This document shows, piece after piece, positions 4,672-36,100 of a stretch of DNA of 64,000 bases (position 1 is the stretch's first letter; each line of letters starts with the position of its first letter). Made by a program: the position numbers and the translations under genes. Under the pieces are notes generated by a model. The model did not search any database. It saw nothing but the letters and a program-made list of their open reading frames with translations, and was not told the origin of the DNA. The stretch comes from Candidatus Eiseniibacteriota bacterium (GTDB taxonomy: Bacteria > Arandabacterota > Arandabacteria > Arandabacterales > Arandabacteraceae), in assembly GCA_043808325.1 (NCBI GenBank), contig JAZDEY010000082.1, positions 3,636 to 67,635 of the forward strand. The letters run 5' to 3'.

Positions 4672-4750
4672 GCAGCACCAATCACTACTTATTCTCTCCA
4701 GGAATTTGGTGTACGCCGATGATCGTTCAAAGTGCCATTGGGGTGTATCC

Positions 4751-8865: not shown

Positions 8866-8958
8866 AGTAAAGTGCCCAGACTCAGGGTTTGAGGATTGAC
8901 AACCAGCCCGGGCTTAGTAAGATACAGACGTGAAACCGCAGACAACGGGAGCCTGGTA

Positions 8959-9411
8959 ATGCCGCTATCGCCATTCGAGGAGATTATCAACTTCGCTCGG
9001 GACAAGGAAAAGGAATCCATAGCCTTCTATGAGGATCTCGCCCGCAAGACAGGCGATCCCGCGAAGAAGGACGCGATCCTCGCCATGGCCGATGAGGAAC
9101 GGAAGCACGAGAAACTCCTTCGTGGATTGACACCCGAGAGCCTTCAGTTTGCAAAGGGGTCTTCACAACCGGACATGAGGCTCGGCGACTACATGATCGA
9201 CCTCGAACCGTCGGGCGATCTCACATACCAGGAACTCCTGGTGATCGCGATGAAGCGAGAGGAGAAGTCCCGGGCCCTCTATGCCGACCTGGAGGCGAGG
9301 GCCGCCGATAGCGCAACCGGCAAGGTCTTTACCCTGCTCAAGGGTGAAGAGCTCAAACACAAGACGAAACTGGAAAAAGAGTACGAAGGGCACGTCTTCT
9401 GGGAAGGATAA
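8959..9411 (+). CDS. ferritin-like diiron protein, rubrerythrin family (no rubredoxin domain)
   Basis: ExxH-type pairs EERKHE and EELKHK in a four-helix layout. Paralogous to 37309..37782. Start taken at internal ATG 8959 (MPLSPFEEI). Confidence 0.6.
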   Translation: MPLSPFEEIINFARDKEKESIAFYEDLARKTGDPAKKDAILAMADEERKHEKLLRGLTPESLQFAKGSSQPDMRLGDYMIDLEPSGDLTYQELLVIAMKREEKSRALYADLEARAADSATGKVFTLLKGEELKHKTKLEKEYEGHVFWEG

Positions 9412-13093: not shown

Positions 13094-14395
13094 CTATCGC
13101 ATGAAGATCAATTGGACCAGAACAAAAACCGGCAACAGCACGATCAATGAGAACTTCCAGACATAGGAGAAGAAGTGCGGCATCTTGATGTTGTTGTCTT
13201 CGGCCACCGCTTTTACCAGGAAGTTCGGGCCATTTCCGATATAGGTCATGCTCCCAAAGAACACCGCACCTACGCAGATTGCCCTCATGAGCTCTTGGGG
13301 AATTCCGGCAACCATGCTCGAGGCCTGTTTCCCCAGGCCGAGCGCAAGCGAGTAAAAGGCGACTGCCGTTGGAGTATTGTCCAGGACGCTGCTCAGACTG
13401 CCGGCAGCATAGTAGAATTGACGGGGCAGATTCACACCAAGATGCTGTGCGTTGTACTCCAGGTAAAGCAGGCAGGGCACCATTGTCACGAAGATCCCGA
13501 AGAACAGATAGGCAACCTCTTTAATCGGTCCCCAGGTGAAATTGTTGGAGACGCGGGCCAATCGTGGAGTCAGAGCCAACGAGAGAAGTGCCATGGCGAC
13601 GAGCGCCAGCTCCCTCACGAATCGGTAGTATGGGTTTCGGTGAATCACGCTGACGTATTGTTCATTCAGGAAGGCAACTGCAAGCACCACCCCCACAAGC
13701 CAAACGAAATTCAACTTGCCTTCGAGCTTGAGCGGGCGAATGTTGGTCTCGTCCCGCAGTACCGCCTGTGGGCTCTCCTTCCTATAGTAATAAGAATCAA
13801 CGAGGAAGTACACCACGAGGAGCAAGCCATTGACGAACAGCCACTCCGGGAAGAGTCTCAGAAACCAGGTAAACGGCGTTCCCCGCAGGTACATCATGAA
13901 CAGGGGCGGATCGCCAAGCGGGGTCAGCAGGCCGCCGCAGTTGGCAACTATTCCTATGAAAAACAGGATCGTGTGGATCTTGAACTTCCTTTCCTGGTTT
14001 GTTTTGATCACAGGGCGGACCAGCAGCATTGCGGCCCCGGTGGTTCCCATAATCGACGCCAGCACTGCACCCGTGCCAAGAAACGCCGTGTTGATGATTG
14101 GTTTTGCCTCGATGTCCCCGCCGAGAGAGATGCCTCCGGTTATGGTAAAGAGCGAGCCGAGCAGGATTATGAAGGGCAGATAGTCAAAAACCAGCGTGTC
14201 AAAAAGCCTCTCATGCATTCCACTTGCCAAGAGGAAAACGGCTATCGGCAGGCTGAGAACTCCCGCAACGATGAGTTTGTTCCTATTCTTCTCCCACCAG
14301 TGATTCCAGACGAGCGGAAAGATCGCGATGGATAGCAGCATCAGGACAAATGGCAGAAGACTTATGAGCGGGGCATCGAATCTCTCAGCATTCAC
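13094..14395 (-). CDS. ArsB/NhaD-superfamily ion permease (CitMHS fold), putative Na+/H+ antiporter
   Basis: About 12 TM segments; NCGGLLTPLGDPPLFMMYL motif typical of the NhaD/ArsB/YbiR permease group. Confidence 0.65.
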   Translation of the reverse strand: MNAERFDAPLISLLPFVLMLLSIAIFPLVWNHWWEKNRNKLIVAGVLSLPIAVFLLASGMHERLFDTLVFDYLPFIILLGSLFTITGGISLGGDIEAKPIINTAFLGTGAVLASIMGTTGAAMLLVRPVIKTNQERKFKIHTILFFIGIVANCGGLLTPLGDPPLFMMYLRGTPFTWFLRLFPEWLFVNGLLLVVYFLVDSYYYRKESPQAVLRDETNIRPLKLEGKLNFVWLVGVVLAVAFLNEQYVSVIHRNPYYRFVRELALVAMALLSLALTPRLARVSNNFTWGPIKEVAYLFFGIFVTMVPCLLYLEYNAQHLGVNLPRQFYYAAGSLSSVLDNTPTAVAFYSLALGLGKQASSMVAGIPQELMRAICVGAVFFGSMTYIGNGPNFLVKAVAEDNNIKMPHFFSYVWKFSLIVLLPVFVLVQLIFMR

Positions 14396-14450: not shown

Positions 14451-14942
14451 TCAGCCTACGGCGGCCTCCCAGGGTGATTCCTTGATCGCCGAATTGATCA
14501 CTTCGGCGAGGTCCCGCCCGGCCTCGGCCACGACCTCGCTCAAGGGCTTCCCGAACTCAAGGCTCTCAGGCTGGACCGCAAGAAAGAAGGTCTTGGCGCC
14601 CGTCTGGGCCTCGATGTAATCCGTAAATATGGTCAAGCGCGCTGCGCGAGTCGGAAGCCCGCCACAGACGATATCCGCCCTGGCCACGATGCGGACTTCG
14701 CCGGGCCGCCCGCCGAAGTCGGCGGCATCGATCACGACGACCTTCTCAGGCTTCATGCGCGCGATCACCCCCAGATAATTCTCGGGAGTCTCGCCGCAGT
14801 CGATAACCTTAACACGGCTGGTGGCCTTGAGGAGCGATCCGACAAGGGGTCCGACCCCGTCATCTGCCCGCCAGGTGTTTCCCACGCAAGCCACAACCAC
14901 CCGGCCGGTGAGCATGCGTGCAAGAAAAGGGTGATCGACCAT
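14451..14942 (-). CDS. hycI: [NiFe]-hydrogenase maturation endopeptidase (HycI/HybD family)
   Basis: VVVACVGNTWRADDGVGPLV matches the GNx4DDGxG signature; about 160 aa. Last gene of the hydrogenase operon. Confidence 0.8.
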   Translation of the reverse strand: MVDHPFLARMLTGRVVVACVGNTWRADDGVGPLVGSLLKATSRVKVIDCGETPENYLGVIARMKPEKVVVIDAADFGGRPGEVRIVARADIVCGGLPTRAARLTIFTDYIEAQTGAKTFFLAVQPESLEFGKPLSEVVAEAGRDLAEVINSAIKESPWEAAVG

Positions 14943-15000
14943 ACGACTCTAAGCAGCTCCAGCCGTGGCTTTGCGCTTCTTTGCCCCTCCTCAGGCTTCT

Positions 15001-15609
15001 CTAAGCCTTGAGCTGGACCTGGCGCCTGCACTTCGGGCAGAGAATCCTTATGACATCCTGCCTGTCAGGCTCCAGATGCTCCTCACGCGGGGGAACATCG
15101 GCGAGGAGTTTCGAGTCCTTGAGGGCTGAAAGAATCAACGTAGGGTTAGAATAGGCGAGGGGACCGAGCCTGTCGGCGACCCACCTTATATGTTCAGCGG
15201 CTCCTACGACGTCGCCGCACATTTCACACATCACAAGTTCCTTCTCGAGACCGGTCTTGGCGTCCTCTCGGTTGAAGTAAACCGTGTCATAGTCCGTGGT
15301 CAGCTTGATGCCTTTCTTGGTGATGCAATTGGCCTCACACTGACCGCACTGGATGCACTTGTCGTACCGCAGGGTGATCGTCCGCTTCCTGGTCTTGGGA
15401 TCGTCCTCCACCTGGATGTCATCGGCCGGGCAGACCATGGCGCAGGCCCCACAGCCCACACAACCCTCCTCATCATACTTGGCCTTACCCCGGAAACGCT
15501 TCTGCGGCTCAGATGGCTTTCTGGGGAATGGATGCGTGTATGGTCCCGTGAACAGGGCCGTAAACGCTTCCTTCAAGATCCTACCCTGAAGAATGCCGGG
15601 TAACTTCAT
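15001..15609 (-). CDS. NuoI/MbhN-like 2x[4Fe-4S] ferredoxin subunit of group-4 hydrogenase, with C-terminal Cys4 extension
   Basis: CVGCGACAMVCP and CIQCGQCEANC. Start at ATG 15609 (MKLPGILQGR) with GGGGAGGA RBS; the track ORF's 85-aa N-extension overlaps mrpG. Extra C-terminal CEMCG...(about 60 aa)...CPKCRR. Confidence 0.8.
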   Translation of the reverse strand: MKLPGILQGRILKEAFTALFTGPYTHPFPRKPSEPQKRFRGKAKYDEEGCVGCGACAMVCPADDIQVEDDPKTRKRTITLRYDKCIQCGQCEANCITKKGIKLTTDYDTVYFNREDAKTGLEKELVMCEMCGDVVGAAEHIRWVADRLGPLAYSNPTLILSALKDSKLLADVPPREEHLEPDRQDVIRILCPKCRRQVQLKA

Positions 15610-15968
15610 TTGTCCTCCCCAAGAGGATACTTGATCTCCTGCGCGCGTTCCTTGAACTTGTTGACCACACTCTTGTCCCAAAGTCTCACACCTGCCAGAT
15701 ATGATCCTCTGACAAGGGCATGTGCGGCAGTGGGCGAGGTAAACAACACGAAGACAGCGCAGAGCCCGGCCTTTATGGCGATCGCCGGCGAAGCCGTGAC
15801 CACAGCGGTCCCAGCGAGCACAAGTATCGTGCCGAGGGTTACGCACTTCGTGGCGGCCTGGCACCTATTGTAGACGTCCGGCAGTCGCAAGAGACCCACG
15901 CAGCCGACGAAATCGAAGAAGGCCCCTATGCTGATGAGGATGTAGCCTATGATCACGTTGCTACTCAT
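15606..15968 (-). CDS. mrpG: Mrp antiporter subunit G-like (MnhG)
   Basis: Three TM helices; size and position after mrpF. Start set at internal Met (MSSNVIIGYILI). Confidence 0.65.
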   Translation of the reverse strand: MSSNVIIGYILISIGAFFDFVGCVGLLRLPDVYNRCQAATKCVTLGTILVLAGTAVVTASPAIAIKAGLCAVFVLFTSPTAAHALVRGSYLAGVRLWDKSVVNKFKERAQEIKYPLGEDK

Positions 15969-16224
15969 CAAACCCCCTCCCCTCAAGATGTTTCGCTAGC
16001 GCAAGCGTTCCTATGAAACTGACAAGGGACCAAGCAATGGCGAGGTTGACGAAGTAGTCTTTGCGCGTGATTAGCACCAACAGGCACACAAAACCCACAA
16101 CCACAACGCCAAGTATATCGATGGCAACGGCCCGGTCGGGGGCGCTTGGGCCGTGGCCGATTCTGTAGAGACACATGAAGCAAGCTGCCGCAAGAACGCC
16201 TGCTATCACGAAGATGAACGTCAT
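15961..16224 (-). CDS. mrpF: Mrp antiporter subunit F-like (MnhF)
   Basis: 87 aa, three TM helices; MTFIFVIAGVLAAACFMCLYRI typical MrpF N-terminus. Confidence 0.65.
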   Translation of the reverse strand: MTFIFVIAGVLAAACFMCLYRIGHGPSAPDRAVAIDILGVVVVGFVCLLVLITRKDYFVNLAIAWSLVSFIGTLALAKHLEGRGFDE

Positions 16225-16730
16225 TCGAATATCCTCCCCAGCAGCTTCTCAAATCGTCCGGATATGTGCTGCGTGGCCTCCTCTACGTCCTCCGCTTTGA
16301 CGTATATCCAATGGACGTAAAGATAGCCGTCGTCGGTCAGGTCAACGGTGATCGTACCCGGCGTCAGAGTTATGGAGTTGGCAAGCATTGTCCTGCCCGC
16401 ATTGCTTTTCAGGGATGTCTTGATCTTGACTATTCCCGGCCTTATCGGCAGATCCGGATGGATGACCCTATAGACCACGTCCAGGTTGGCGTGGATCATG
16501 GCCCACAAGAAGGTGGGAATATAGACCAGGAACCAGAATATGCGGGTCGGGATACCCTTCAAGCGGACCCCTCCCGGGACCTTGTCGCCAAAGAAGATCC
16601 CTACGAAGAGGGCGACAAATACGCCCAGCACCGTACTCTGTACATCGAAATCATTCGTGCCGGGATAGAAGGGCCACACCAGCAGGAACCATAGCACAAA
16701 TGACACAAGTGTAAGGGTCAGCCTTCTCAA
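16221..16730 (-). CDS. mrpE: Mrp antiporter subunit E-like (MnhE)
   Basis: 169 aa; two N-terminal TM helices then a soluble domain. Confidence 0.65.
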   Translation of the reverse strand: MRRLTLTLVSFVLWFLLVWPFYPGTNDFDVQSTVLGVFVALFVGIFFGDKVPGGVRLKGIPTRIFWFLVYIPTFLWAMIHANLDVVYRVIHPDLPIRPGIVKIKTSLKSNAGRTMLANSITLTPGTITVDLTDDGYLYVHWIYVKAEDVEEATQHISGRFEKLLGRIFE

Positions 16731-16742
16731 GCCATCTCCTCC

Positions 16743-18227
16743 TTACATCCCCAATACCCGGGTCGCATACTCAAAGCCTTCTTGAAGAGCCTTAGCCGCC
16801 GGCATGAAGAAGCCGTCTTTGACCTGCGGAAGCCACAGCAATCCCATGAGCGTGGCGAGAACCGCAAATCCCACCATGGAGATTCGCATGAAAACCGGCA
16901 CTTCATGCGCTGAAGCGTAAGCTTCCTTGGGTTCTCCGAAGAAGGTTCTCCGCTGCATTCTCATAAATGCGGCAAGCGTGAGAATGCTCACCCCTGTTGC
17001 CCATGCGGCATAACCGTATTTCTCCGCCTGCACGGCCGCAATGATTATGAAGAGCTTGCTCCAGAAACCGCTGAAAGGCGGTATCCCTGCAATTGACATA
17101 GAGCCTATGAGCGAGGTTGCTCCTGTGACCGGCATCTTGTCCCGCAGGGCGCCCATTTTGTTCATGTCCCGCGTCCCGGTCGAATACTCGATAGCGCCGG
17201 CGTTGAGGAACAACAAGGACTTGAAAACCGCGTGATTCATGAGATGGAAAAGAGCAGCCGCGATTCCCAGTCTTGTGCCGAGGCCAAATCCAAGCACAAT
17301 ATATCCAACCTGGCTTATGCTCGAATACGCCAGGAACCGCTTGATGTCGTCCTGCCCCATCGCCAAGAGCACACCTACGACCATCGAGACAGTACCAAGC
17401 ACAAGCAGTATCGTGGAGATAAGCGGCGTCATGCCCATCGCATTGAACAGGATCCTTGCCATGGCATACAGCCCGATCGTCTTGATGAGGACCCCCGAGA
17501 GCATCGCCGATATGGGAGCGGGGGCGGACGGGTGGGCATCCGGCAGCCATGAGTGGAACGGAATCAGTGCAGATTTAAGTCCAAAACCGGCAATAAATAG
17601 AGCAAGTGCAAAGAAGAAAAGGGGCTGAGTATTGCCAGCCAGGACCCTGGAGATCTGAGCCAGATTGAGGTTGCCGGTCAGGGCGTAGGTTATTGCGATC
17701 CCTAAGAGGATGAGCGTAGAGCCCACACTCCCGAGGACGAGATACCTGAACGAGGCCTCGAGCTCCTCATGCTGGCAGCCAAAGGCAACAAGTGCGTATG
17801 AAGCAATTGACGCAATCTCAAGAAAAACATAAAGATTGAAGATGTCGCCCGTCAGCGCAACCCCGAGCATTCCCCCGACCATCAGCAAGAACAGACTGTA
17901 GAACCGGGATTTCGACGTGAACCTGTCCATGTACTGGATCGAATAGACCGTCACGAGGAAGGAGACAAGCGTGATCGTGATCAGCATGACAACCGAAGCG
18001 CTATCCAGCACGAGATTGATCCCGATGGGTATCCCGGCCCTCGGCAGCCACCCTCCCATCCAGTAAACACCGCTCTTGCCGATCACAGAAAGTGCCATCA
18101 GGAAAAGCACGAGCGTCGTCACATTTCCGAGCACATCACAGAGCCGCGGATTCTTTCTTCCAACCAGCGGAATGAGAAAGCCGGCCCCCAGGGGGATCGC
18201 AACAAACAACGGAAGAATCTGCATCAT
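16743..18227 (-). CDS. mrpD: Mrp antiporter subunit D-like (NuoM/NuoN family proton-pumping subunit)
   Basis: 494 aa polytopic; conserved NuoM/N-like helices (e.g. HSWLPDAH). Confidence 0.8.
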   Translation of the reverse strand: MMQILPLFVAIPLGAGFLIPLVGRKNPRLCDVLGNVTTLVLFLMALSVIGKSGVYWMGGWLPRAGIPIGINLVLDSASVVMLITITLVSFLVTVYSIQYMDRFTSKSRFYSLFLLMVGGMLGVALTGDIFNLYVFLEIASIASYALVAFGCQHEELEASFRYLVLGSVGSTLILLGIAITYALTGNLNLAQISRVLAGNTQPLFFFALALFIAGFGLKSALIPFHSWLPDAHPSAPAPISAMLSGVLIKTIGLYAMARILFNAMGMTPLISTILLVLGTVSMVVGVLLAMGQDDIKRFLAYSSISQVGYIVLGFGLGTRLGIAAALFHLMNHAVFKSLLFLNAGAIEYSTGTRDMNKMGALRDKMPVTGATSLIGSMSIAGIPPFSGFWSKLFIIIAAVQAEKYGYAAWATGVSILTLAAFMRMQRRTFFGEPKEAYASAHEVPVFMRISMVGFAVLATLMGLLWLPQVKDGFFMPAAKALQEGFEYATRVLGM

Positions 18228-18234
18228 GCTCGCT

Positions 18235-18582
18235 CTAACCTCTTAGCCTCCGGATTTCCTGTATGTCGTAAGTGCCGTATCGTTCATATAGCCGCATGGC
18301 AATCGCTACCGTCATTGCCGTGACGCCGACCCCGATCACGATCGCGGTAAGAACAAGCGCCTGGGGAATGGGGTCAACCGAGCTGCGCGCGAAGGTGTCG
18401 GGTGGGATCGTGGTATCCATAATAGGCGCGATCCCCTTCAGCCGGTATCCGATCATGACAAGAAAGAGATTGACCGAATTCTCAAGAACAACAAGACCGA
18501 TTATGATCTTGATGAGATTTCTCTTCACCATCACACCGTAAAGCCCGACCATGAAGAGCATAAGACACAGTGCATAGAGCAT
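18235..18582 (-). CDS. mrpC: Mrp antiporter subunit C-like (NuoK family)
   Basis: 115 aa, three TM helices, NuoK/MnhC-like. Confidence 0.75.
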   Translation of the reverse strand: MLYALCLMLFMVGLYGVMVKRNLIKIIIGLVVLENSVNLFLVMIGYRLKGIAPIMDTTIPPDTFARSSVDPIPQALVLTAIVIGVGVTAMTVAIAMRLYERYGTYDIQEIRRLRG

Positions 18583-18594
18583 GGCTATCTCCTT

Positions 18595-19077
18595 CTATTC
18601 TACCTTCTGCTCCCCCTCGTAGACTACCCTAAGAAGGATCAGCAGTATGAAAAGCAAGAACAGCGAACTGGCAACTTTAAGGGCAATCGCAATATTACAG
18701 AGCGGAATGATGCCGCCACTGACAAGATGAAACGGCCGGCCTATATGCAGTACCTTGACCGGGAAATTGCCGAAGAACACACCCCCGAGGCTCGGCAACA
18801 TGCCCAGAAGCGCGATCGTAAGGAACATGAGGCCCCCGATACTGTCGATCTCAGCAACGATGTTCATGCTGAGGATCTTCGGTGCTCCAGTCTTGCCGTA
18901 GGAGAGGACCAGCATCACAAAGGCAAGGGCCAGGATGACGCCGCCGGCAAAGCCGCCACCAGGGGTGAGGTGACCGTATGCAACGATGTAGATGCCAAAG
19001 ACAAGAATGAAGCCTTTAACCCAACCCGCCATGGTCTTCACTATCGATGTCATGCCCTGCGGTTTCACTCCTGCCAT
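18595..19077 (-). CDS. mrpB: MnhB-domain membrane subunit (MrpB-like)
   Basis: YGHLTPGGGFAGG motif; 4-5 TM. Start uncertain (13-nt overlap with the upstream gene, or an internal Met). Confidence 0.7.
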   Translation of the reverse strand: MAGVKPQGMTSIVKTMAGWVKGFILVFGIYIVAYGHLTPGGGFAGGVILALAFVMLVLSYGKTGAPKILSMNIVAEIDSIGGLMFLTIALLGMLPSLGGVFFGNFPVKVLHIGRPFHLVSGGIIPLCNIAIALKVASSLFLLFILLILLRVVYEGEQKVE

Positions 19078-19634
19078 TCCAGCTCCTCCGGCTCGGATGA
19101 TGCCTTGCGAGCCCTCTTTCGGATTATGGCGATGGCACCCATCACGGCGGTAAAGAGCACCGTTGCCTCTCCGAGGGTATCATAAGCTCTGTAATCAAGG
19201 ATCACCGCGCTCACGATATTCGCAGCGCCGGTGTCATTGACACCGTTCATGACGTAATACATCGAGGGTGTGTTCGGAATGACTGAAAACACCGGATGGC
19301 CGAACTCCGGCAAGCCTTGGAACACCCTCATCGATGCAAGAAACACCACGAAAAGCAGGGTCATGGTGACCATCAAACCGAAGAAGTCCCTGTTCCCGGC
19401 GAATGACTTGAGTCCGACCCTCAGAGTCGCTCTAATCAGGATAATCAAGGTAAGCACCTCGACCACGATCGGCACGATCGCAACGTCGGGCGCCAGCATA
19501 AAGAAGAACGCGATAATGAGGCCGAAGCCCACGGCTGTTATGGAGACAACGACAGCCAGCAGGTCCCGAATCTCAATGGCGATTATCGCTGCTATTATGG
19601 TGAAAAGAACCACTACTCCCAGCAATTCAACCAT
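19065..19634 (-). CDS. DUF4040 + MnhB-like membrane subunit (equivalent to the MrpA C-terminal domain / MbhD-E), separate ORF
   Basis: N-terminal DUF4040-like helices (APDVAIVP) and MnhB-like NIVSAVILDYRAYDTLGEATVLF. Confidence 0.65.
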   Translation of the reverse strand: MVELLGVVVLFTIIAAIIAIEIRDLLAVVVSITAVGFGLIIAFFFMLAPDVAIVPIVVEVLTLIILIRATLRVGLKSFAGNRDFFGLMVTMTLLFVVFLASMRVFQGLPEFGHPVFSVIPNTPSMYYVMNGVNDTGAANIVSAVILDYRAYDTLGEATVLFTAVMGAIAIIRKRARKASSEPEELEWQE

Positions 19635-19637
19635 TTC

Positions 19638-21461
19638 TCACCTCAGTAGAATAAGCATGATAATGAGCCAGCCGGCAAGTGCCCACGTAAGATAGTCCGG
19701 AAGGTTCCCGGTATGAATTGCTCTGAATCCCTTGACGAAATAGTAGGCGAGTCGACGGCCTATCTCGTACAGATCAAGAGATCTCCTCTGGGCGGCGCCA
19801 TACACGCTCTTGAAAAAGCCCATGTCACTCACGGTCCGGTAAAAGTCCGTTCCGGTCACCCTGGTCTCGCTAGGCAGGATTTCACCCCCGACATAGGCTG
19901 AATCCACTCTTACCGCCTTCAGCCTGCCCGCCAAGTAGATTACCAGACCAATCACGATGCCGACCATGATCATAACCGTGGCGAGCCCTGGACTCCACCA
20001 GCCGAGCCACTGGCTCACGCCCGGGACCACTAGCGAAGGCACAGCACTAACCGCCGGTATTATAAACGGTTTGAGAACCAACGAATAGGCAAAAACGCCG
20101 AACGCAACGCAGAGCGCCGCCAGCACGATCATGGGCAGCACCATTGTGAGGCCGACTTCCCTGGGACCCGCGCCACGCTTGGCACGGACACCGAGAAAGA
20201 CCGAGTGAAGCACTTTCACGAAGCTTGCGAGGGTAAGTGCTGAACCAAACAGCGCGGCAACGAGCCAGATCACCCACAGATGACCGCCATTCTTGGACAT
20301 GCCTATTATTCCCTGGTAAACCATCCACTTTGAGGCAAAACCATTGAAGGGAGGAACACCCGATATCGCCAGGGACGCTATCGCACATGCTCCGAAGGTT
20401 ATCGGCATGTACCTCGCAAGCCCGCCGAGGCTGTCCAGATCGGTTGTGCCCTCCCGTTTCTCCACAGCGCCACTGCAAAGGAACAGCAACCCCTTGTAGA
20501 TGGCATTATTGAGCATGTGGAAAAGTCCGCCGGCTATACCGATGGGATTCATCGTCCCTATCCCTATCACCATGTACCCAACCTGGGAAACGGCATGGAA
20601 GCCGAGCAGCCGCTTCATGTCGTGCTGGACAAGCGCCATCATCACCGCCGCGATGATCGTGAACGATCCGACGATAAGCAGGAGCAGCATCATCGCCGGC
20701 GTCAGGTTGAAAACGTGAAGCGAGATGCGGGCGAGCAAGTATATACCCAGAAGCTTGTCCACCGACGCCGGCAAGAAGGCAACCGCTGATGCGGGGCCCC
20801 ATTCAGCCGCGTCGGGTATCCAGCTGTGGAAGGGCATGGCGCCGGCTTTGGCAAATGCTGCACAGGCAAAGAGAATGAAAGCAAAACAGGAAAGCCGCGT
20901 GATCGTCGGGATGGGATCTTGCGACAGGCTTGTTGAATCCGTCATCATCCAGAGAATCGCAACGCCAAGCGCCATCAGAGCGTCGGTGCCGCCGACTATT
21001 ATCATGGTCTTCTTAGCAGCAGCCGAGGCCCTAGCCCCCGCAACACCTATCAGCAGATAAAGAGTGAGACCCAAAAACCCCCAAAAGCTGAGGAGCATGA
21101 CGAGATCGTTAGAAAGGACGGCGCCGTATGCTGCTCCAAGGGAGAGAAGGGAATAGGCATAGTACTGTTTGAGATTCGGCTTGCCCCTCATAAATCCGAG
21201 GGAATAGACCATCATCAGGAGGCCAAAGAAACCTATCGAGAGAAGAACAAACGATGATAGATAGTCCACCTTGAAGAGCGTCATCCCAAACATCTTGCTC
21301 TCGAGCCACCCCTTCCGGAACAGGACTATCGTGAGCCAGAAGGTCACCCCCACGATGATGACGGCGATCGTTTCCTTGACGCCCTTGAGGGCATCCGGGA
21401 TAATCCTCACAAGGAGGCCGGCAATCATCGGGATAAGAATCGTGTAGCCCACTAGATCCAT
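19638..21461 (-). CDS. NuoL/MrpA-N-like antiporter subunit (MbhH-like)
   Basis: 607 aa; about 16 TM; NuoL/MrpA-family helices (HSWIPDAAEWGP). Confidence 0.85.
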   Translation of the reverse strand: MDLVGYTILIPMIAGLLVRIIPDALKGVKETIAVIIVGVTFWLTIVLFRKGWLESKMFGMTLFKVDYLSSFVLLSIGFFGLLMMVYSLGFMRGKPNLKQYYAYSLLSLGAAYGAVLSNDLVMLLSFWGFLGLTLYLLIGVAGARASAAAKKTMIIVGGTDALMALGVAILWMMTDSTSLSQDPIPTITRLSCFAFILFACAAFAKAGAMPFHSWIPDAAEWGPASAVAFLPASVDKLLGIYLLARISLHVFNLTPAMMLLLLIVGSFTIIAAVMMALVQHDMKRLLGFHAVSQVGYMVIGIGTMNPIGIAGGLFHMLNNAIYKGLLFLCSGAVEKREGTTDLDSLGGLARYMPITFGACAIASLAISGVPPFNGFASKWMVYQGIIGMSKNGGHLWVIWLVAALFGSALTLASFVKVLHSVFLGVRAKRGAGPREVGLTMVLPMIVLAALCVAFGVFAYSLVLKPFIIPAVSAVPSLVVPGVSQWLGWWSPGLATVMIMVGIVIGLVIYLAGRLKAVRVDSAYVGGEILPSETRVTGTDFYRTVSDMGFFKSVYGAAQRRSLDLYEIGRRLAYYFVKGFRAIHTGNLPDYLTWALAGWLIIMLILLR

Positions 21462-22669
21462 ATCTTGTCCATCCTCGAATTATACTTCTCCATGAGCTTC
21501 CGGGTTTTCTCATGCGATAGCCTGAGAAGATCCTTGCCGGTCAGCAGCTGCCGGCCGCTGCCGGCATCAACCACGAGCGTCCGCTCCGTACAACAATAGC
21601 ACGGGTCAATCGCTGCGAGCGTTATGGTGGCATCCGACACGGTATAGCCCACACAAGCGCGCTTATTTGTCGGCACATTCATGAAACTCGGCGCGCGGAT
21701 CTTGTATCTCACGGGGCGGTTGCTACCGTCCGACCGGGTATAATGTATGACCTCCCCTCGCGGAGCTTCATGGGTTCCGATGCCTTCACCGGGGGGAATC
21801 TCGGTGAGGTTCGCATCGATGCCGTCCTTCACCTCGAGGAGCTTCCGGCAGCACTGCTTGCATATCTTGACCGACTCGAGGATCTCCAGGACCCGCACCA
21901 CGAGCTTATCGAAGACGTCGCCCCTTTCGGTGACGATCACGTCGAAGTCGACGTCGCCATAGGCCGCGTAAGGATGGTCCCTCCGCACGTCTATGGGAAC
22001 ACCGGAAGCTCTCGCCGTCGGCCCAAGAGCCCCGAGCTCGATGCAATCCTGCTTGGTAAGGACGCCGATGTTCTTGGTCCTGGCCTGAAGCACGGGATCG
22101 GAGAGCGCAACATCGCGGAACATCAAGGTGGGCTTTACTAGGCTGTCGAGGATACGCACTGCCGAAGCGATATCCTCATCGGCAAAGTCACGCCGGACAC
22201 CGCCGGGCTTCATCATGCCGTAATGATTGCGGTTACCGGTCAGGAGCTCAAAGAGATCCAGCACGGGTTCCCTATACTTCCAGGCCCACATCCACACCGT
22301 GTTGTAGCCCAGGAAGTGGCCCGCCAGCCCCAGCCACAGAAGGTGGGAGTGAACCCTCTCCAATTCCCCGATGAAGGTTCTGATGTACTTGGCTCGCTCG
22401 GGAATCTCAACGCCGGCAACGTCCTCGGTCGCCATCACGCCGGCGAAGGGGTGCGACGAAGAGCAGATGCCGCAGATCCGCTCGACCAGGAAAGGAATCT
22501 GATCATAGCTCAGACCCTCAGCCAGCTTCTCGATACCGCGATGGTTATAGCCTATCTCTATCTCAAGCTCGACCACTTTCTCACCCTCGACGTGGAGCTT
22601 GAAAAACTCGGGCTCCTCCTGCAGAGGATGATAAGGTCCGATCGGAATTACAGTCTTACTTTTGGCCAT
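21452..22669 (-). CDS. group-4 [NiFe]-hydrogenase large subunit (NuoD/MbhL/EchE-like)
   Basis: N-terminal Ni-binding motif RICGICSSSH; C-terminal DPCYCCTER followed by a 41-aa extension. Start at ATG 22669 (MAKSKTVIPIGPY) with GGAGGGG RBS. Confidence 0.9.
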   Translation of the reverse strand: MAKSKTVIPIGPYHPLQEEPEFFKLHVEGEKVVELEIEIGYNHRGIEKLAEGLSYDQIPFLVERICGICSSSHPFAGVMATEDVAGVEIPERAKYIRTFIGELERVHSHLLWLGLAGHFLGYNTVWMWAWKYREPVLDLFELLTGNRNHYGMMKPGGVRRDFADEDIASAVRILDSLVKPTLMFRDVALSDPVLQARTKNIGVLTKQDCIELGALGPTARASGVPIDVRRDHPYAAYGDVDFDVIVTERGDVFDKLVVRVLEILESVKICKQCCRKLLEVKDGIDANLTEIPPGEGIGTHEAPRGEVIHYTRSDGSNRPVRYKIRAPSFMNVPTNKRACVGYTVSDATITLAAIDPCYCCTERTLVVDAGSGRQLLTGKDLLRLSHEKTRKLMEKYNSRMDKIWI

Positions 22670-23120
22670 TGTCCCCGCCCCTCCAATCCTTCCAATCCTT
22701 CCGCAACGGGTGATTGTCCGTAGGCCAGTCATCCGACAGCAAGAGATGTCTCATGTCCGGGTGATTCCGGAACTCAATTCCCAGCAGTTCGTGCATCTCC
22801 CGCTCGATCCACTCGGCCGCGGGCACCCGGATCGCTATCGACTCGATCGAAGGCTTATCCGGATCGAGTATCACACGGAGATTGAGGAAACGGTGCGCCC
22901 GGTCAAGCGGAAAGTGATACAGTATCTCCATGCCGCCTACCATGTGCATCCCCGTAGCGATCGAGAAGCGGCAACCCAGTTCCTTATATAGATACTCGGC
23001 CACGTCCGGTAGCCCTTTGGGATCGACCGTGATATAGGTCCGGCCGGGGCTCTTATCGTAAACTTCGATGATCGCGGCTCCGAACCTGGTCTTAAGACCC
23101 TGCAGAACCTCGTCCGCCAT
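22656..23120 (-). CDS. NuoC-like 30-kDa subunit (MbhK/EchD-like)
   Basis: 154 aa; NuoC-like fold region ERE(M/V)xE(L/M)xGI (EREMHELLGIEFRNHPDMRHLL). Confidence 0.8.
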   Translation of the reverse strand: MADEVLQGLKTRFGAAIIEVYDKSPGRTYITVDPKGLPDVAEYLYKELGCRFSIATGMHMVGGMEILYHFPLDRAHRFLNLRVILDPDKPSIESIAIRVPAAEWIEREMHELLGIEFRNHPDMRHLLLSDDWPTDNHPLRKDWKDWRGGDNGQK

Positions 23121-23133
23121 CTAATCCGTCCTC

Positions 23134-23565
23134 CTATTTCTTGCTCGCCGCAAGCTTGGCCTGGACCAAAGCCACAACGGCCTGAATCATGGCCTCCGGC
23201 TTGGGTGGGCATCCCGCAATGTAAGCATCAACCGGGACAACCTCATCAAGCGGCCTGGTCTCATTATATGATTTCCCAAACATCTCCGTAGAGCAAGAAC
23301 AATTGCCTAAGGCAATCACAAAACACGGCTTGGGCGCCTGAGCGATCACCCGCTTGAGTACCTTGCTTGATTTGCGGTTCATCGAGCCCGTAACCAGGAT
23401 CGCATCCGCGTGGCGGATGCTCCCGACCAGCTGAATCCCGAAGCGCTCAAGATCAAAGCGGGGAGTGAGAGCGTCAAGTATCTCGATGTCGCAGTTATTG
23501 CACGGGCTGGCTGCGAGATGAAAGACCCAGATCGATTTCGTGAGCGCCTTAAGCTTTAGACTCAT
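23134..23565 (-). CDS. [NiFe]-hydrogenase small subunit (NuoB/MbhJ-like, single proximal 4Fe-4S)
   Basis: Cys ligands in SPCNNCDIE, GNCSCS and GCPPKPE. CxxC spacing rather than the adjacent CC of NuoB, as I recall for Mbh-type small subunits. Confidence 0.85.
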   Translation of the reverse strand: MSLKLKALTKSIWVFHLAASPCNNCDIEILDALTPRFDLERFGIQLVGSIRHADAILVTGSMNRKSSKVLKRVIAQAPKPCFVIALGNCSCSTEMFGKSYNETRPLDEVVPVDAYIAGCPPKPEAMIQAVVALVQAKLAASKK

Positions 23566-23575
23566 ACCCTATTCC

Positions 23576-24511
23576 TCACAAACCCAGGAAAGCCAGAACC
23601 ACCGCCGCAACACCGAAGGGTGTCACCATCGCCCAGAAGAACTTCATTACCTGATCGATCCTAAGTCTAGGATTAGTGTTTCTTATGAGCGTCATCAACA
23701 GAAGTATCACCAAGTATCCGACCACCCCGTAAACCAGACTTAGCCAGGATGATCTCCAGTTCAAACCACCGAGGAAAAGCACAATCATAAAGAGCGGCAT
23801 CACGAAAGCCATCATCCACTGGGTCAGCTTGAAGAGCCCTAGCGGGATACCGGAATACTCTATGTATGCGCCACCCATGATCTCGGTCTCCGCCTCAGGA
23901 GCATCAAAGGGAACCTTGCCGAGCTTCGCTTGAGCAACAAGGAGACAGATAAGAAAGGCAATCACGCCGGAAATTGAGGCGATTATTGGCCGCCCAGCGG
24001 CCTGATACTGTATGATTTCGTCGAGCCTTATCGTGTTTCCCGCCTTGATTATAGCGACCAGTATGGCAAGCACGAAAGGAAGCTCGTAGGAGAGAATCAT
24101 CTTCATTTCCCTGGAGCCACCCAACGATGCAAGCGGATTGCCCGATGCGAACGCCCCCAGAATCACGGCCTGAGACGGGATGGTAAGAAGATAGATCACG
24201 ACGATGAGATCGCCGACGAAGGTCTGAGATGGAAATACGATTGTCCTCAGGAGGATCGCGCTAACTACCGCGACAGCTGCAAGCGCGAAAAGCGGTGCCG
24301 ACAGGAAAAGGAAACGTGACGCGCCCTCGGGCACGATGACCTCCTTGCCCAAGAGCTTGACGAAGTCATAGACCGGCTGGAAGAATGGCGGGCCAACCCT
24401 CCACTGTATTCTGGCCGTGATCTTGCGGTCGAACCAGTGAGCGAACATGCCGACCACGGCCGCAATCACGAAACCCACAACCAGGAATCCCATCGCTTGA
24501 AGAATGCTCAT
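23576..24511 (-). CDS. NuoH/HycD/MbhM-like membrane subunit
   Basis: 311 aa, 8 TM; NuoH-family helices (RKITARIQWRVGP, GIPLGLFKL). Confidence 0.85.
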   Translation of the reverse strand: MSILQAMGFLVVGFVIAAVVGMFAHWFDRKITARIQWRVGPPFFQPVYDFVKLLGKEVIVPEGASRFLFLSAPLFALAAVAVVSAILLRTIVFPSQTFVGDLIVVIYLLTIPSQAVILGAFASGNPLASLGGSREMKMILSYELPFVLAILVAIIKAGNTIRLDEIIQYQAAGRPIIASISGVIAFLICLLVAQAKLGKVPFDAPEAETEIMGGAYIEYSGIPLGLFKLTQWMMAFVMPLFMIVLFLGGLNWRSSWLSLVYGVVGYLVILLLMTLIRNTNPRLRIDQVMKFFWAMVTPFGVAAVVLAFLGL

Positions 24512-24520
24512 ACGAACCTG

Positions 24521-25003
24521 CTACCTCTTCCAGACGTCACATTTCACTACCAAATGCTCGCCACCCTGGTGGAGCTTTTTCGCCTCATCGGGCTCGATCT
24601 CTACGAACTTGATTGCGCCCAGAGGACAGGTCTTGACACACAGCGGGTCGTCAGCTGGAGCGATCCTGCCCAGGCAGTAATCGCACCTTGAGAGCCAGTA
24701 CGGGATCAGTTCCGGGTAAATCGTGCCAAAGGGACAGGCCAGAGCGCAGGATTTGCAGCTTATGCATCTCAGGTTGTGCCGCCTGAGGACGCCGCCGGGC
24801 TCCTTCTCGAGGGCCTCCTTGGGGCAGGCATTGATGCAGTTCCCCGATTCGCACTTTCGGCAGATGACGGCATAGGCCGCCAGCTCTCGAAGACTAGTTA
24901 TGCCGTCGTTGGCCGGGTGGTAGGGGTAACTACACCGGGTCGTGCACTGCTCCTTGGCCTCGCACCCGTCGCATATGTCCAGATCGATGAAGATCTTTTT
25001 CAA
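24521..25003 (-). CDS. polyferredoxin (HycB-like), 4 Cys clusters
   Basis: CDGCEAKEQCTTRC, CRKCESGNCINACP, CISCKSCALACP, CDYCLGRIA...CVKTCP. Confidence 0.75.
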   Translation of the reverse strand: MKKIFIDLDICDGCEAKEQCTTRCSYPYHPANDGITSLRELAAYAVICRKCESGNCINACPKEALEKEPGGVLRRHNLRCISCKSCALACPFGTIYPELIPYWLSRCDYCLGRIAPADDPLCVKTCPLGAIKFVEIEPDEAKKLHQGGEHLVVKCDVWKR

Positions 25004-25021
25004 CTCGGCGACCTCACAAAA

Positions 25022-25855
25022 TTAATCCCAAAGGGCCGGCTTGCCCTTGATAAGGTCATAGGTCATCACCGGGCCGTCCCTGCACACCATGTATTCGCCC
25101 AGCATGCAATGCCCGCATTTGCCTATCCCACAACTCATGTTCTTTTCCATGGAGAGATAGATCACGTTATCGGGAAAGCCTAGCTCCACCAGCTTCAAGG
25201 TGGCGAACTTCATCATGACGGGCGGGCCGCAGACCACCACCAGGCTGTTTGCCATATCGAGCCCGAGGTCCTTGACCACGGTCGTCACCACGCCCACGTT
25301 GCCTTTCCAGGTGGGATCGCCCACGTCCACCGAGAGCCGGAATTCGATCCTGGATGGGTTTATCTTGGGCCACTGCTCCAGGATCTGGGACTTATAGATG
25401 ATGTCCTGCGGCGCTTTGGCGCCGTAGCAGAAGAGGATCTTCTTGAAATCGTCAAGCCGGTTACACAGTGCCAGGAAAAGTGACCGGAGCGGAGCAAGCC
25501 CGACACCACCCCCGACGATCAAGATCTCCTTGCCTTTGAAGTGGTCCAGGGGATAGCCCTTGCCCATCGGGCCCCTGACGCCGACCGTCTCGCCCTTCTT
25601 CATAGCGTGGAGCACACCCGTTACCTTACCCGCCCTCATTATGGTGAACTCCAGGGTCTCCCTGACCCGAGGATTGGAGGAGGGCGTGAAGGGAGCCTCA
25701 CCCAGGCCCGGCACGGTGACTTCCATGAACTGACCGGCCTCAAAGGGAATCTCCTCACTGGGCCTCAGGACAAAGGTCTTGATCGTAGAGCTTTCGTCGA
25801 TCACCTCTAGGATCTCGGCAAGTATCGGCTTATAGATGTCTTTAGCTACCGACAT
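25022..25855 (-). CDS. AsrB/HydG (sulfhydrogenase gamma)/PyrK-like FAD-NAD(P)-binding subunit with C-terminal 2Fe-2S
   Basis: FNR-like barrel, GGGVGLAP NAD-binding loop, C-terminal MSCGIGKCGHC...VCRDGP. Start at ATG 25855 (MSVAKDIYKPIL) with AAGGAAG RBS. Confidence 0.75.
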   Translation of the reverse strand: MSVAKDIYKPILAEILEVIDESSTIKTFVLRPSEEIPFEAGQFMEVTVPGLGEAPFTPSSNPRVRETLEFTIMRAGKVTGVLHAMKKGETVGVRGPMGKGYPLDHFKGKEILIVGGGVGLAPLRSLFLALCNRLDDFKKILFCYGAKAPQDIIYKSQILEQWPKINPSRIEFRLSVDVGDPTWKGNVGVVTTVVKDLGLDMANSLVVVCGPPVMMKFATLKLVELGFPDNVIYLSMEKNMSCGIGKCGHCMLGEYMVCRDGPVMTYDLIKGKPALWD

Positions 25856-26952
25856 ACTTCCTTGAGCACCTTTCTCATGTCTATCTTGCCCGGGCAGCCG
25901 GCTATGCATCTGCCGCAGCCGGTGCACCCGTCGAAGCCATAGTTCTTCGGAAAATAGTCGAGCTTATGATAGTACCTGTGCTTGAAGCGCTCGACCAGGT
26001 GTTTGCGGGGATTTGCGCCCCCGGCGACTTGCGCGAAACGCTTATAGGCGCAGGCATCCCACATCTTGAGCCGCTTGTAGCGGTCCCGGAATCTCTCATC
26101 ATAGAGGAGAAAACACTGGCAGGTGGGGCACAGGAAAAGGCATGCGCCGCACTCGACGCAGGTCTCAACATGCTTGGCCCAGGCGGCGTCGTCGTACGCT
26201 CCGGCAAGCAGCTCCGGCCAGGTCTTGGGCGGCTTGTACTCCGCCGACTGTTTCTCGACCGACTGCAGCGTCTTCTGCCGGATCGCCTGGCGCTCCGCGA
26301 GATGCTTATCGGTCGCGGGCTTGAATACATCCTTATTGGCGTCGGCAGCTTCCTTGCCCTTGTCGCTTCCGACTTCGGCAACGTAGCCGCCTTCGAGCTT
26401 GGTCAGGTTCAAGTCAAAACCCTTCTCGGCATAGGGCTTCACACCGACCAGCACGCAAAAACAGGTCTCCAGAGGCTCGGTGCAGTCGGTGCTCACGACA
26501 AAGCCTTTCTTGCGGCGTTCCTCATAGAAGGGATCCTTGAAATCGCCCTCCAGGAAGACCTTGTCGAGGGCTTCGATAGCCCTCACGTCGCAGGCCGATG
26601 CCCCCACTATTGCAAAGGGCCTGGATTCTTTGAAGGAGCTCTCTTTGGAAGGGTACTCAGCAACCTCTTCGAGCAAGGAGAAGAAGAAGGGTTTAAGCGG
26701 CTGAAATGATCTTACGCCGGGATAGGTAAACCCGCCGGCCGCAGCGTAGGGCTTTATCCTTACTCGCCCCTCGTCATCCTTGGTGGTCACAAACAGGTCG
26801 CCGCGCTTCTCAAACCAGGACAAGAACCTGGGGAAGTCCGAATCAGTTACGTAGTAGGCCGTCATCCACCTTTTTCCTGTCTGTGAATCGGCGTAGCCTT
26901 CAACCGCGCCGATCTTGTCCCACCGAATCGGTGAACATATATTGTCGCTCAC
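25846..26952 (-). CDS. AsrA/HydB (sulfhydrogenase beta)-like iron-sulfur subunit
   Basis: IVGASACDVRAIEALD and C-terminal CVECGACLFLCPTCQCF, CTGCGRCIAGCPG. GTG start right after an in-frame stop. Confidence 0.7.
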   Translation of the reverse strand: MSDNICSPIRWDKIGAVEGYADSQTGKRWMTAYYVTDSDFPRFLSWFEKRGDLFVTTKDDEGRVRIKPYAAAGGFTYPGVRSFQPLKPFFFSLLEEVAEYPSKESSFKESRPFAIVGASACDVRAIEALDKVFLEGDFKDPFYEERRKKGFVVSTDCTEPLETCFCVLVGVKPYAEKGFDLNLTKLEGGYVAEVGSDKGKEAADANKDVFKPATDKHLAERQAIRQKTLQSVEKQSAEYKPPKTWPELLAGAYDDAAWAKHVETCVECGACLFLCPTCQCFLLYDERFRDRYKRLKMWDACAYKRFAQVAGGANPRKHLVERFKHRYYHKLDYFPKNYGFDGCTGCGRCIAGCPGKIDMRKVLKEVCR

Positions 26953-26998
26953 CTCACGTCAAGCGAAAACCGGGAAGTTGACGCGACGAAACTCAGGA

Positions 26999-34474: not shown

Positions 34475-34623
34475 GACTTGCAGCCCGCTGCATATATCAT
34501 GATCTAGGTTACTTCACTCTTTTCAACATAACCTGACTGGAGCCTGCGGGGTCGCATATGGAAGCTGCGATCATGGCAAAGCCGACGCGCAGAGCATTGA
34601 AGAAGGAGGCAAGGCACGTGAGG

Positions 34624-35229: not shown

Positions 35230-35304
35230 CCGGTGCGGGCAGCCATATGGTCATCTTGACTTGAATTGAGGCCATCACTAGATTGCATACGGAGGAAAAT
35301 GTAG

Positions 35305-36015: not shown

Positions 36016-36100
36016 TCGCCGGATCTGGAGTCTGCGGAACTGAAACCCGTGTAGCTTAAGTCCGCAAGCAATACGCGGGGTGTGGAGGAGGCTCGCACCT

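Follow-up and report, generated by a model that had tools for sequence, protein, structure and literature searches.

An intact hun operon from an Eisenbacteria-related lineage and a possible NAD(P)H partner for the Hun hydrogenase-antiporter complex

Hun is a 16-subunit NiFe hydrogenase-Na+/H+ antiporter supercomplex named by Glass et al. (bioRxiv 10.1101/536078), who described HunA and HunB as AsrAB-like proteins without AsrC, HunC as an Fe-S protein, HunE, HunF, HunG and HunP as the NiFe module, HunD, HunH, HunI, HunL and HunK as P-module-like, and HunI to HunO as Mnh-like. The large subunit HunG carries the motifs CGIC...CYCC, where other group-4 enzymes have CxxC, and HydDB places it in group 4g, a class predicted to be ferredoxin coupled, yet it is distant from other 4g sequences (10.1101/536078). 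The reported carriers are metagenome-assembled genomes (MAGs) of Atribacteria, Firmicutes, Omnitrophica, Elusimicrobia and Bacteroidetes as well as Kosmotoga isolates, and some of the hun MAGs hold a molybdopterin protein (10.1101/536078). Genes for asrA, asrB, cooF and Mrp subunits together with a group-4 hydrogenase were also found in Saganbacteria by Matheus Carnevali et al., who termed them enigmatic (PMC6349859), and papers on Ace Lake MAGs list a "group 4g Mbh, Mrp-linked" in Omnitrophota, Cloacimonadota and Auribacterota (PMC8542988, PMC9324843). In this study, we examined a 17-gene cluster in a 64,000-nucleotide stretch of contig JAZDEY010000082.1 from a Candidatus Eiseniibacteriota bacterium (assembly GCA_043808325.1); this whole stretch is called the window here. 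The cluster is almost certainly an intact, canonical hun operon consisting of hunA to hunP plus hycI, and its subunits, read together with those of its relatives, raise the possibility that NAD(P)H is the electron partner of the complex.

According to the list of open reading frames (ORFs) and their translations, 17 consecutive minus-strand ORFs span positions 14451 to 26952 of the window. All 17 proteins gave a significant Pfam or NCBIfam match of the expected kind in profile scans, so that the gene assignments of the original prediction, which had been made from the sequence without database searches, were correct throughout. The genes, the transporter gene that follows them and a promoter-like site are as follows.

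25846..26865, minus strand: hunA, AsrA/ShyB (sulfhydrogenase beta)-like Fe-S protein, 339 amino acids from ATG 26865 (Fer4_22, 3e-29)
25022..25855, minus strand: hunB, AsrB/HydG (sulfhydrogenase gamma)-like protein with sites for FAD, NAD(P) and [2Fe-2S] (Pfam FAD_binding_6, NAD_binding_1, DHODB_Fe-S_bind)
24521..25003, minus strand: hunC, HycB/CooF/HydN-type protein with four [4Fe-4S] (Pfam Fer4_11)
23576..24511, minus strand: hunD, NuoH/MbhM-like membrane subunit (Pfam NADHdh, 4.7e-69)
23134..23565, minus strand: hunE, NuoB-like hydrogenase small subunit with one [4Fe-4S] (Pfam Oxidored_q6, 1e-27)
22656..23120, minus strand: hunF, NuoC-like (Pfam Complex1_30kDa, 5e-27)
21452..22669, minus strand: hunG, [NiFe] large subunit, NuoD-like (Pfam Complex1_49kDa, NiFeSe_Hases)
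19638..21461, minus strand: hunH, NuoL/MrpA-N/MbsH'-like antiporter subunit of 607 amino acids (Pfam Proton_antipo_M, Proton_antipo_N)
19065..19634, minus strand: hunI, fused MbhD and MbhE, the C-terminal part of MrpA (Pfam MbhD, MbhE; NCBIfam MrpA C-terminal regions)
18595..19077, minus strand: hunJ, MrpB/MnhB-like (Pfam MnhB, 4.5e-20)
18235..18582, minus strand: hunK, MrpC/NuoK-like (Pfam Oxidored_q2, 2e-29)
16743..18227, minus strand: hunL, MrpD/NuoM/N-like antiporter subunit (Pfam Proton_antipo_M, 8e-73)
16221..16730, minus strand: hunM, MrpE-like (Pfam MNHE, 6e-41)
15961..16224, minus strand: hunN, MrpF-like (Pfam MrpF_PhaF, 2e-15)
15606..15968, minus strand: hunO, MrpG-like (Pfam PhaG_MnhG_YufB, 1e-24)
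15001..15609, minus strand: hunP, HycF/NuoI-type protein with two [4Fe-4S] and a C-terminal Cys4 metal site (NCBIfam "formate hydrogenlyase complex iron-sulfur subunit", 7e-28)
14451..14942, minus strand: hycI-like maturation endopeptidase (Pfam HycI, 4e-14)
13094..14395, minus strand: CitMHS_2-family transporter, not a conserved part of Hun (Pfam CitMHS_2, 3e-147)
26934..26962, minus strand: promoter-like site TTGACG-17-TATGTT upstream of hunA, a consensus match only, from the consensus scan

With orthologue-guided starts, neighboring genes overlap by up to 14 nt or are separated by up to 58 nt, and the genes on the hunA/hunB side lie 9 to 18 bp from the next ones. Sites resembling promoters (11 versus 9.0 expected from shuffled sequence) or terminators (17 versus 14.6) occur inside the unit at chance level in consensus scans. 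Together with the tight junctions, this bears out the view that the cluster is a single unit. From A to P, its gene order is identical to the published description of Hun: an AsrA-like, an AsrB-like and an Fe-S protein, then NuoH, NuoB, NuoC, NuoD and a NuoL-like subunit, seven Mrp-like subunits and a NuoI-like protein. Since both this order and the HunG motifs match the description by Glass et al., the arrangement is already known and named, and the window holds another intact copy of it. The original prediction had not recognized it among the described arrangements; its suggestion of novelty falls with the published gene order (10.1101/536078) and with the further sightings in PMC6349859, PMC8542988 and PMC9324843. 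Published Hun and the window have in common the 16 genes, their order, the CGIC...CYCC motifs, AsrAB without AsrC and the full Mrp-like set. The window adds hycI and perhaps the CitMHS_2 gene, and it comes from a lineage not listed in the paper, its neighbors being Eisenbacteria-labeled MAGs. An exact-sequence look-up of the window HunG (405 and 426 amino acids) returned no identical record; a 98% identical protein (P0002) lies on a 2.3-kb contig without useful context.

Scanning with the large subunit at one genome per species yielded 449 confirmed relatives, the best 80 of which were studied, with gene order read by tblastn using all 17 window proteins. Across these best 80 of 449, HunG is 62 to 92% identical, and hun-type genes surround hunG as far as the contigs extend. 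The MAGs concerned are labeled Eisenbacteria, Clostridia, FCPU426, Fibrobacterota, Kiritimatiellia, Verrucomicrobiota, Lentisphaerae, Elusimicrobiota, Omnitrophota, Planctomycetia, Sumerlaeota, Gammaproteobacteria and Alphaproteobacteria. At the protein level, the database contains at least 120 clusters with 65% or higher identity. Upstream of hunG, hunA to hunF stand in the same order in 58 of the 59 loci with enough upstream DNA; the full membrane set (genes 8 to 15) is present in 51 of 55 loci spanning the membrane arm, and hycI follows hunP in 43 of the 50 loci that are long enough. The survey of synteny in related MAGs that had been suggested with the original prediction thus found the order conserved across more than 10 phyla. 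One of the loci (L013) belongs to a Clostridia MAG from the ODP-1244 sediment data set used to describe Hun; it has the same order, and its HunG is 69 to 70% identical to that of the window.

Because the order of hunA to hunF is kept in 58 of 59 loci, it is strongly supported that the AsrAB-like pair is integral to the hydrogenase, as the original prediction had assumed. The competing idea, that the two genes form a separate sulfite-reductase unit beside an Mbh-type operon, draws on partial NCBIfam matches to AsrA and AsrB. Both matches remain below the cut-offs, at 115 versus 323 bits for AsrA and 207 versus 289 bits for AsrB. AsrABC includes the siroheme protein AsrC, whereas no siroheme or AsrC-like gene was detected by Pfam and NCBIfam among the 17 operon genes. 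The short gaps and the chance-level internal signals also speak against a unit of its own. We rejected this idea on the conserved synteny and the missing AsrC, and we regard it as extremely improbable.

The sole exception among the 59 loci, L079, lacks hunA to hunC. Here, an ORF at 7962-9020 has the N terminus of a metallophosphatase joined to the final 119 residues of NuoH/HunD, and the genes upstream are unrelated envelope genes. In view of this fusion and these genes, we take L079 to be a chimeric, rearranged or truncated contig, probably with a mis-assembly or deletion junction. In a Clostridia-labeled clade, an insert of about 2.2 kb interrupts the match to HunA (L013, 3673-5904; L018, 3306-5554; L020, 3461-5833), and an fdhD gene lies upstream in five loci of the clade. 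Insert and fdhD fit the molybdopterin-domain protein known from some hun operons and suggest a formate-linked hun variant. In one Verrucomicrobiota locus (L036, about 1-4321), genes for a HydB-like protein, a HydG-like protein and a distant NiFe large subunit (22% identity) directly precede hun. This set looks like a group-3b sulfhydrogenase, in which case the genome would hold both paralogous beta/gamma pairs. A second Verrucomicrobiota locus (L033, about 598-1956) has only a distant large-subunit match upstream of hun.

HunG of the window holds all four NiFe-ligating cysteines, in the motifs RICGICSSSH (L1) and DPCYCCTER (L2). Among 80 orthologues, Cys66, Cys69, Cys357 and Cys360 are 100% conserved, the extra Cys359 is 98% conserved, and DPCYCCTER as a whole is at least 90% conserved. 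The protein continues for about 42 amino acids past DPCYCCTER, and this partly conserved C-terminal extension is in keeping with the hycI gene that closes the operon. In the small subunit HunE, Cys22, Cys25, Cys89 and Cys119 are invariant, and the acidic loop PFD.pEAEtE...EYSG of HunD is conserved. The closest solved structures to HunG are MbhL (6cfw_L, 3e-88) and HycE (7z0s_E, 7e-79), with MBS scoring far lower.

The NiFe-ligating cysteines of HunG bear on a role of HunAB as a sulfur- or polysulfide-reducing module, with the complex coupling H2 or another donor to sulfur reduction. Such a role could be read from the homology of HunA and HunB to the beta and gamma subunits of sulfhydrogenase and from the full-length resemblance of HunH to MbsH'. 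The sulfur-reductase activity of sulfhydrogenase I (SHI) is, however, regarded as an in vitro side activity, which we count against this role, and the operon encodes nothing sulfur specific. MBS, Mbx and Ehr have lost NiFe-ligating cysteines, unlike HunG, and MBS retains only two of the four (PMC8165549). We therefore hold a sulfur-reducing function to be very unlikely.

Clues to the electron partner come from the peripheral arm. NCBIfam scores of HunA are 190 bits for ShyB, 155 for HydB and 115 for AsrA, all under the cut-off; its best solved structure is the beta subunit of Pyrococcus furiosus SHI (9nez_B, 1.8e-43), and 15 of its cysteines are 98 to 100% conserved in 64 orthologues. Over its entire length, HunB can be aligned with SHI gamma (9nez_C, 1.6e-51), SHI being an NADPH-dependent enzyme. 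The FAD motif reads GEAPFTPSS in HunB and GEVPISICSS in SHI gamma, the NAD(P) motif, of the GxGxxP type, GGGVGLAPLRS and AAGLGTAPLRS, respectively, and both proteins carry CGPP and the 2Fe-2S motif CGIGKCGHC...C. Among 65 HunB orthologues, APFTPSS, GGGvG.aPLR, CGPP.MMKF and Cys242, Cys247, Cys250 and Cys258 are 90 to 100% conserved; the overall identity of HunB among relatives drops to about 50%, with the cofactor positions kept. The sulfhydrogenases I and II (group 3b, 9NEZ) thus share with Hun beta and gamma homologues over nearly their whole length and the same cofactor motifs. They differ in being soluble heterotetramers completed by alpha and delta, whereas the partner in Hun is a membrane-bound group-4 hydrogenase: the ShyA model hits the window large subunit only at residues 27-138, with 65 bits against a cut-off of 700, and the scores of HunA and HunB lie well under the ShyB, HydB and HydG family cut-offs.

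HunC has 16 cysteines in four cluster motifs and matches FdnH, HycB4/HycB3 of HDCR and HycB of formate hydrogenlyase (FHL; 7z0s_B) in the PDB. HunP (202 amino acids) carries eight cluster cysteines plus Cys128, Cys131, Cys191 and Cys194, all of them 100% conserved, and the latter four align with Cys117, Cys120, Cys155 and Cys158 of Escherichia coli HycF. In the FHL structure, this HycF quartet binds a single metal ion, and HycF's C-terminal extension touches HycB and sits at the interface to FdhF (PMC9474812). MbhN comprises only 139 amino acids and has no HycF-type extension. Because HunP has the HycF-type Cys4 extension and HunC is HycB-like, the arm thus appears to be wired like that of FHL, with HunAB in the position of the donor FdhF. 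FHL-1 (group 4a, 7Z0S) shares with the window HycF including the Cys4 site, HycB and a HycI-type protease acting on a C-terminal extension. It differs in its input, the molybdoenzyme FdhF, in HycE, which fuses NuoC and NuoD where the window has separate genes, and in having no full Mrp set; Pfam and NCBIfam detected no molybdopterin protein in the window operon.

Our reading and that of Glass et al. diverge on the substrate of this arm, NAD(P)H here and ferredoxin there. In the published model, reduced ferredoxin donates electrons to a HunABC wire, and, as in Mbh, the evolution of H2 powers the pumping of H+ and the exchange of Na+ for H+; NAD(P)H is no substrate (10.1101/536078). Rex does not appear in the paper, nor does NAD(P)H in the role of a substrate (10.1101/536078). 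The HydDB 4g call and its predicted ferredoxin coupling agree with this model (10.1101/536078), and so does the closeness of HunG to the ferredoxin-dependent MbhL; on standard potentials, moreover, electron flow from ferredoxin to H+ would yield enough energy for a large pumping arm. Mbh itself (group 4d, 6CFW) shares the NuoB/C/D/H/I-like core and the MrpB/C/D/E/F/G-like subunits with Hun. Its mrp-like genes come first, however, and it has a single antiporter-like subunit, MbhH, whereas the window has a different order and two Proton_antipo_M subunits, HunH and HunL. Free ferredoxin docks directly at the short MbhN, with neither HycB-like nor HydBG-like subunits and no extra module being needed; HunA, HunB, HunC and the extension of HunP are additions of Hun. 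HunB, furthermore, keeps a complete FNR-type FAD/NAD(P) site, 90 to 100% conserved across phyla, which would be under no selection in a pure Fe-S wire. To our knowledge, every characterized relative of HunB (SHI gamma, PyrK, NfnA and AsrB) handles NAD(P)(H). We consider ferredoxin as the donor somewhat unlikely.

A second line of evidence comes from the regions upstream of hunA. The two nearest flanking ORFs of all loci were scanned against Pfam, and in seven loci (L013, L015 to L018, L020 and L022) a rex gene (PF06971 plus PF02629) was found directly upstream of hunA, at a distance of 121 to 328 bp. All seven have a perfect TTGTGAA-N4-TTCACAA between a TTGACA-17-TATAAT promoter and hunA, matching the Rex operator consensus as quoted in PMC6391272. 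When up to two mismatches are allowed, 16 of 58 loci have a Rex box in the 400 bp upstream of hunA, 35 to 190 bp from the gene, and nine of these boxes are perfect. Beyond the loci with a rex gene, they occur in L019, L038, L043, L055, L056, L063, L065, L075 and L078, and as a whole they cover at least five phyla, including MAGs of Elusimicrobiota, Omnitrophota, Planctomycetia and Sumerlaeota. All loci together, 1.27 Mb, contain only 22 sites of this kind, so that 16 of the 22 lie in about 2% of the sequence. Boxes with a 6-nt spacing gave nothing relevant. Rex de-represses its targets at high NADH/NAD+ ratios, so Hun would in these lineages be part of an NADH-disposal response.

We lean slightly toward the view that Hun works reversibly as an NAD(P)H:H+ oxidoreductase and couples this reaction to ion translocation. 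The group-4 [NiFe] core (HunD, HunE, HunF, HunG and HunP) would be built onto a complete Mrp-type antiporter set (HunH to HunO). Electrons would pass between NAD(P)H, the FAD and [2Fe-2S] of HunB, the Fe-S clusters of HunA and the four [4Fe-4S] of HunC, and from there via the two [4Fe-4S] of HunP and the proximal cluster of HunE to the [NiFe] site of HunG, in either direction. The reaction NAD(P)H + H+ <-> NAD(P)+ + H2 would thereby be coupled to H+/Na+ movement via the membrane arm. Gene content, the conserved cofactor motifs, synteny and the Rex operators of relatives are what we observed; how the wire is ordered, which nucleotide reacts, and whether and in which direction ion movement is coupled to it are inferred. 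That NAD(P)H is the dedicated redox partner of Hun is, on the sequence evidence, an evenly balanced proposition. The NAD(P)H-linked partner put forward in the original prediction accordingly gains plausibility from the HunB motifs, the HycF/HycB-type arm and the Rex operators in relatives; it is still an inference.

The textbook potentials are -414 mV for H+/H2 and -320 mV for NAD(P)+/NAD(P)H. On this basis, reduction of NAD(P)+ with H2 should release about 18 kJ/mol under standard conditions, roughly the equivalent of one translocated ion. The H+/H2 couple would lie at about -266 mV with H2 at 1 Pa, making NAD(P)H-driven evolution slightly exergonic. The driving force changes with H2, and the direction and the build-up or use of the gradient would therefore depend on the ambient H2 pressure: at high H2, NAD(P)+ would be reduced and ions pumped, while NAD(P)H-driven H2 evolution in sediments, where H2 is at the pascal level, would be about isoenergetic or slightly exergonic, and the ion gradient could assist it or be weakly built by it. 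For a soluble NADH-dependent hydrogenase, PMC7311640 gives H2 formation from NADH alone at 2.2 to 40 Pa.

Several points weigh against NAD(P)H as the partner. The naming authors proposed ferredoxin as the donor (10.1101/536078), and among solved structures HunG is closest to the ferredoxin-dependent Mbh. Electron transfer from NAD(P)H to H2 yields little or no free energy, which is odd for a complex with two antiporter-like subunits and a full Mrp set. In the window, no Rex box with the 4-nt spacing was found upstream of hunA, and no rex gene was among the scanned ORFs. In Caldicellulosiruptor, C. bescii included, Rex also represses the ferredoxin-dependent Ech as well as pyruvate:ferredoxin oxidoreductase (PFOR) (PMC6391272), a regulation that also counts for the ferredoxin model; control by Rex therefore speaks for a role in NADH balance and not for direct use of NADH. 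Full-text literature searches found no purification, assay or structure of any Hun complex. Searches on later work about Hun, Kosmotoga hydrogenase biochemistry, the SHI structure paper and purified group-4g enzymes gave nothing beyond the papers cited.

The presence of both a HycB/CooF-type polyferredoxin and a flavoprotein would also suit a three-way hub, with ferredoxin reacting at HunC/HunP and NAD(P)(H) at HunB. The complex would then be an ion-translocating hydrogenase and a ferredoxin:NAD(P)+ oxidoreductase in one, or use both donors for H2. The original prediction had allowed for ferredoxin in addition to NAD(P)H, and an MBX linked to an NADPH dehydrogenase had been proposed before in Desulfurococcaceae (PMC3035292). 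Electron transfer from ferredoxin to NAD(P)+ along a linear Fe-S wire would, however, be an uncoupled short circuit, and Pfam and NCBIfam scans found no NfnB, HydB or NuoF-like subunit in the operon. The bifurcating flavin of Nfn sits in the large subunit and not in the PyrK-like one, which we likewise count against a hub. We find this arrangement quite unlikely.

If NAD(P)H is the partner, Hun would resemble complex I in using the same type of soluble substrate, in addition to sharing the NuoB/C/D/H/I/K/L/M-type subunits. It differs from complex I in lacking NuoE, NuoF and NuoG, in keeping the NiFe site instead of a quinone pocket and in its unrelated NAD(P)H input module. The broader picture of Hun as a widespread, Rex-controlled, ion-translocating NAD(P)H:proton oxidoreductase, complex-I-like with an input module unrelated to NuoEFG, is put forward tentatively, as it falls a little short of being probable. 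By their descriptions, the Mrp-linked formate and CO hydrogenases of Thermococcus (group 4b) and the SudA-linked MBX are also alike in combining a donor enzyme, a group-4 core and Mrp subunits. In these Thermococcus and Desulfurococcaceae systems, the donor is a formate dehydrogenase, a carbon monoxide dehydrogenase or SudA, whereas in Hun it would be HunAB.

In the membrane arm, HunL has invariant E137, K218, K249, K336 and K391. HunH matches MbsH' (MBS chain 6u8y_X) over its full length (7-602 versus 7-613) and also MbhH and MrpA. The lysines of transmembrane helices (TM) 7, 8 and 12 are conserved in HunH, but residue 127 is a family-wide conserved glycine where HunL has the invariant TM5 glutamate (E137). 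NuoL and MrpA presumably also carry a glutamate at this position. Because of the conserved glycine in place of the TM5 glutamate, HunH may not be a standard pumping unit.

The two loci closest in HunG (L001 and L003, 87 to 92% identity) have a reduced membrane arm. L001 (11209-15989) keeps HunH, a 172-amino-acid HunI-like protein, a 97-amino-acid HunK-like protein and HunL and lacks MrpB, MrpE, MrpF and MrpG, while L003 (11200-15116) keeps only HunH and one MrpD-like subunit. In both, the last 120 or so amino acids of HunH diverge sharply, with 25 to 50% identity versus 62 to 88% over most of the core. Two Elusimicrobiota loci (L027 and L044) are also without the Mrp set. Among the relatives, HunABC is thus kept more consistently than the Mrp module.

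The longest ORF for hunA starts at GTG 26952 and overlaps the promoter-like TTGACG-17-TATGTT, whose -35 element TTGAC and 17-nt spacing are conserved in L001 and L003. Orthologues of HunA have 339 to 340 amino acids, and ATG 26865 is preceded by AGGA. Since the GTG ORF would cross the conserved promoter-like site and the orthologues have this length, hunA most likely starts at ATG 26865 and not at 26952. The leader of about 60 nt between site and start (26866-26933, minus strand) is conserved in L001 (about 5725-5790) as CCGATTCGGTGG...GAAGGCTACGCC.ATTCACAGACAGGAA, and its counterpart there cannot be coding. The leader could be regulatory or just reflect recent common ancestry.

Hun is common in uncultured anaerobes, and MAG studies routinely enter it under "Mbh" with ferredoxin dependence. 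Should its exchange of electrons be with NAD(P)H, the metabolism reconstructed for Omnitrophota, Elusimicrobiota, Atribacterota, Planctomycetota and others would have to be revised, as would the H2 thresholds and energy yields inferred for these lineages. Hun would then be an independent way to put NADH onto a chemiosmotic hydrogenase and a third route for fermenters to shed NADH as H2, besides the confurcating HydABC and the combination of Rnf with a ferredoxin hydrogenase. Comparison with Hun would also help in asking how complex I gained its NADH input. The interest lies with the family, an abundant enzyme whose electron partner may be mis-assigned, for which there is a concrete alternative and a reported cultured carrier; the window adds one canonical copy from an Eisenbacteria-related lineage.

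Downstream of the operon, the CitMHS_2 gene follows hycI after 55 bp without a terminator-like site. In L001, and only in this closest locus, a CitMHS_2 gene (84% identity) directly follows hunP, and the gene may be a co-transcribed, lineage-specific 18th gene. Besides the downstream CitMHS_2 gene, L001 has an upstream PAS_10 gene in common with the window. The source organism probably belongs to the lineage of the Eisenbacteria-labeled MAGs. In the window, genes for alkaline phosphatase and glutamine synthetase come after the operon, and the same holds for six or seven loci from the L004 to L012 group. Between a ZIP transporter gene and hunA, the window encodes a 392-amino-acid protein with beta-helix/Chlamydia-PMP repeats (27142-28320, minus strand). 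In L001, the upstream ORF (4692-5507) ends only about 280 bp from hunA, so the beta-helix gene is absent there.

No hyp, rnf, nfn or PFOR genes were found among the scanned ORFs of the window, and the window contains no tRNA genes. A tyrosine recombinase gene of the phage-integrase family (33523-34392, plus strand), with no tRNA nearby, lies beside the gene for a single 924-amino-acid protein that combines SPFH, phosphodiesterase and TPR domains. An oxygen-detoxification cluster as is typical for strict anaerobes occupies positions 34558 to 37782 (plus strand); it encodes an FMN reductase, a fusion of flavin reductase and rubredoxin, a protein of the flavodiiron type (ODP/metallo-beta-lactamase) and rubrerythrin. 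A second rubrerythrin-like gene is located at 8896-9411 (plus strand). Finally, a full-length 6S RNA (SsrS; Rfam RF00013, 88.4 bits) was identified at 62885-63072 on the minus strand.

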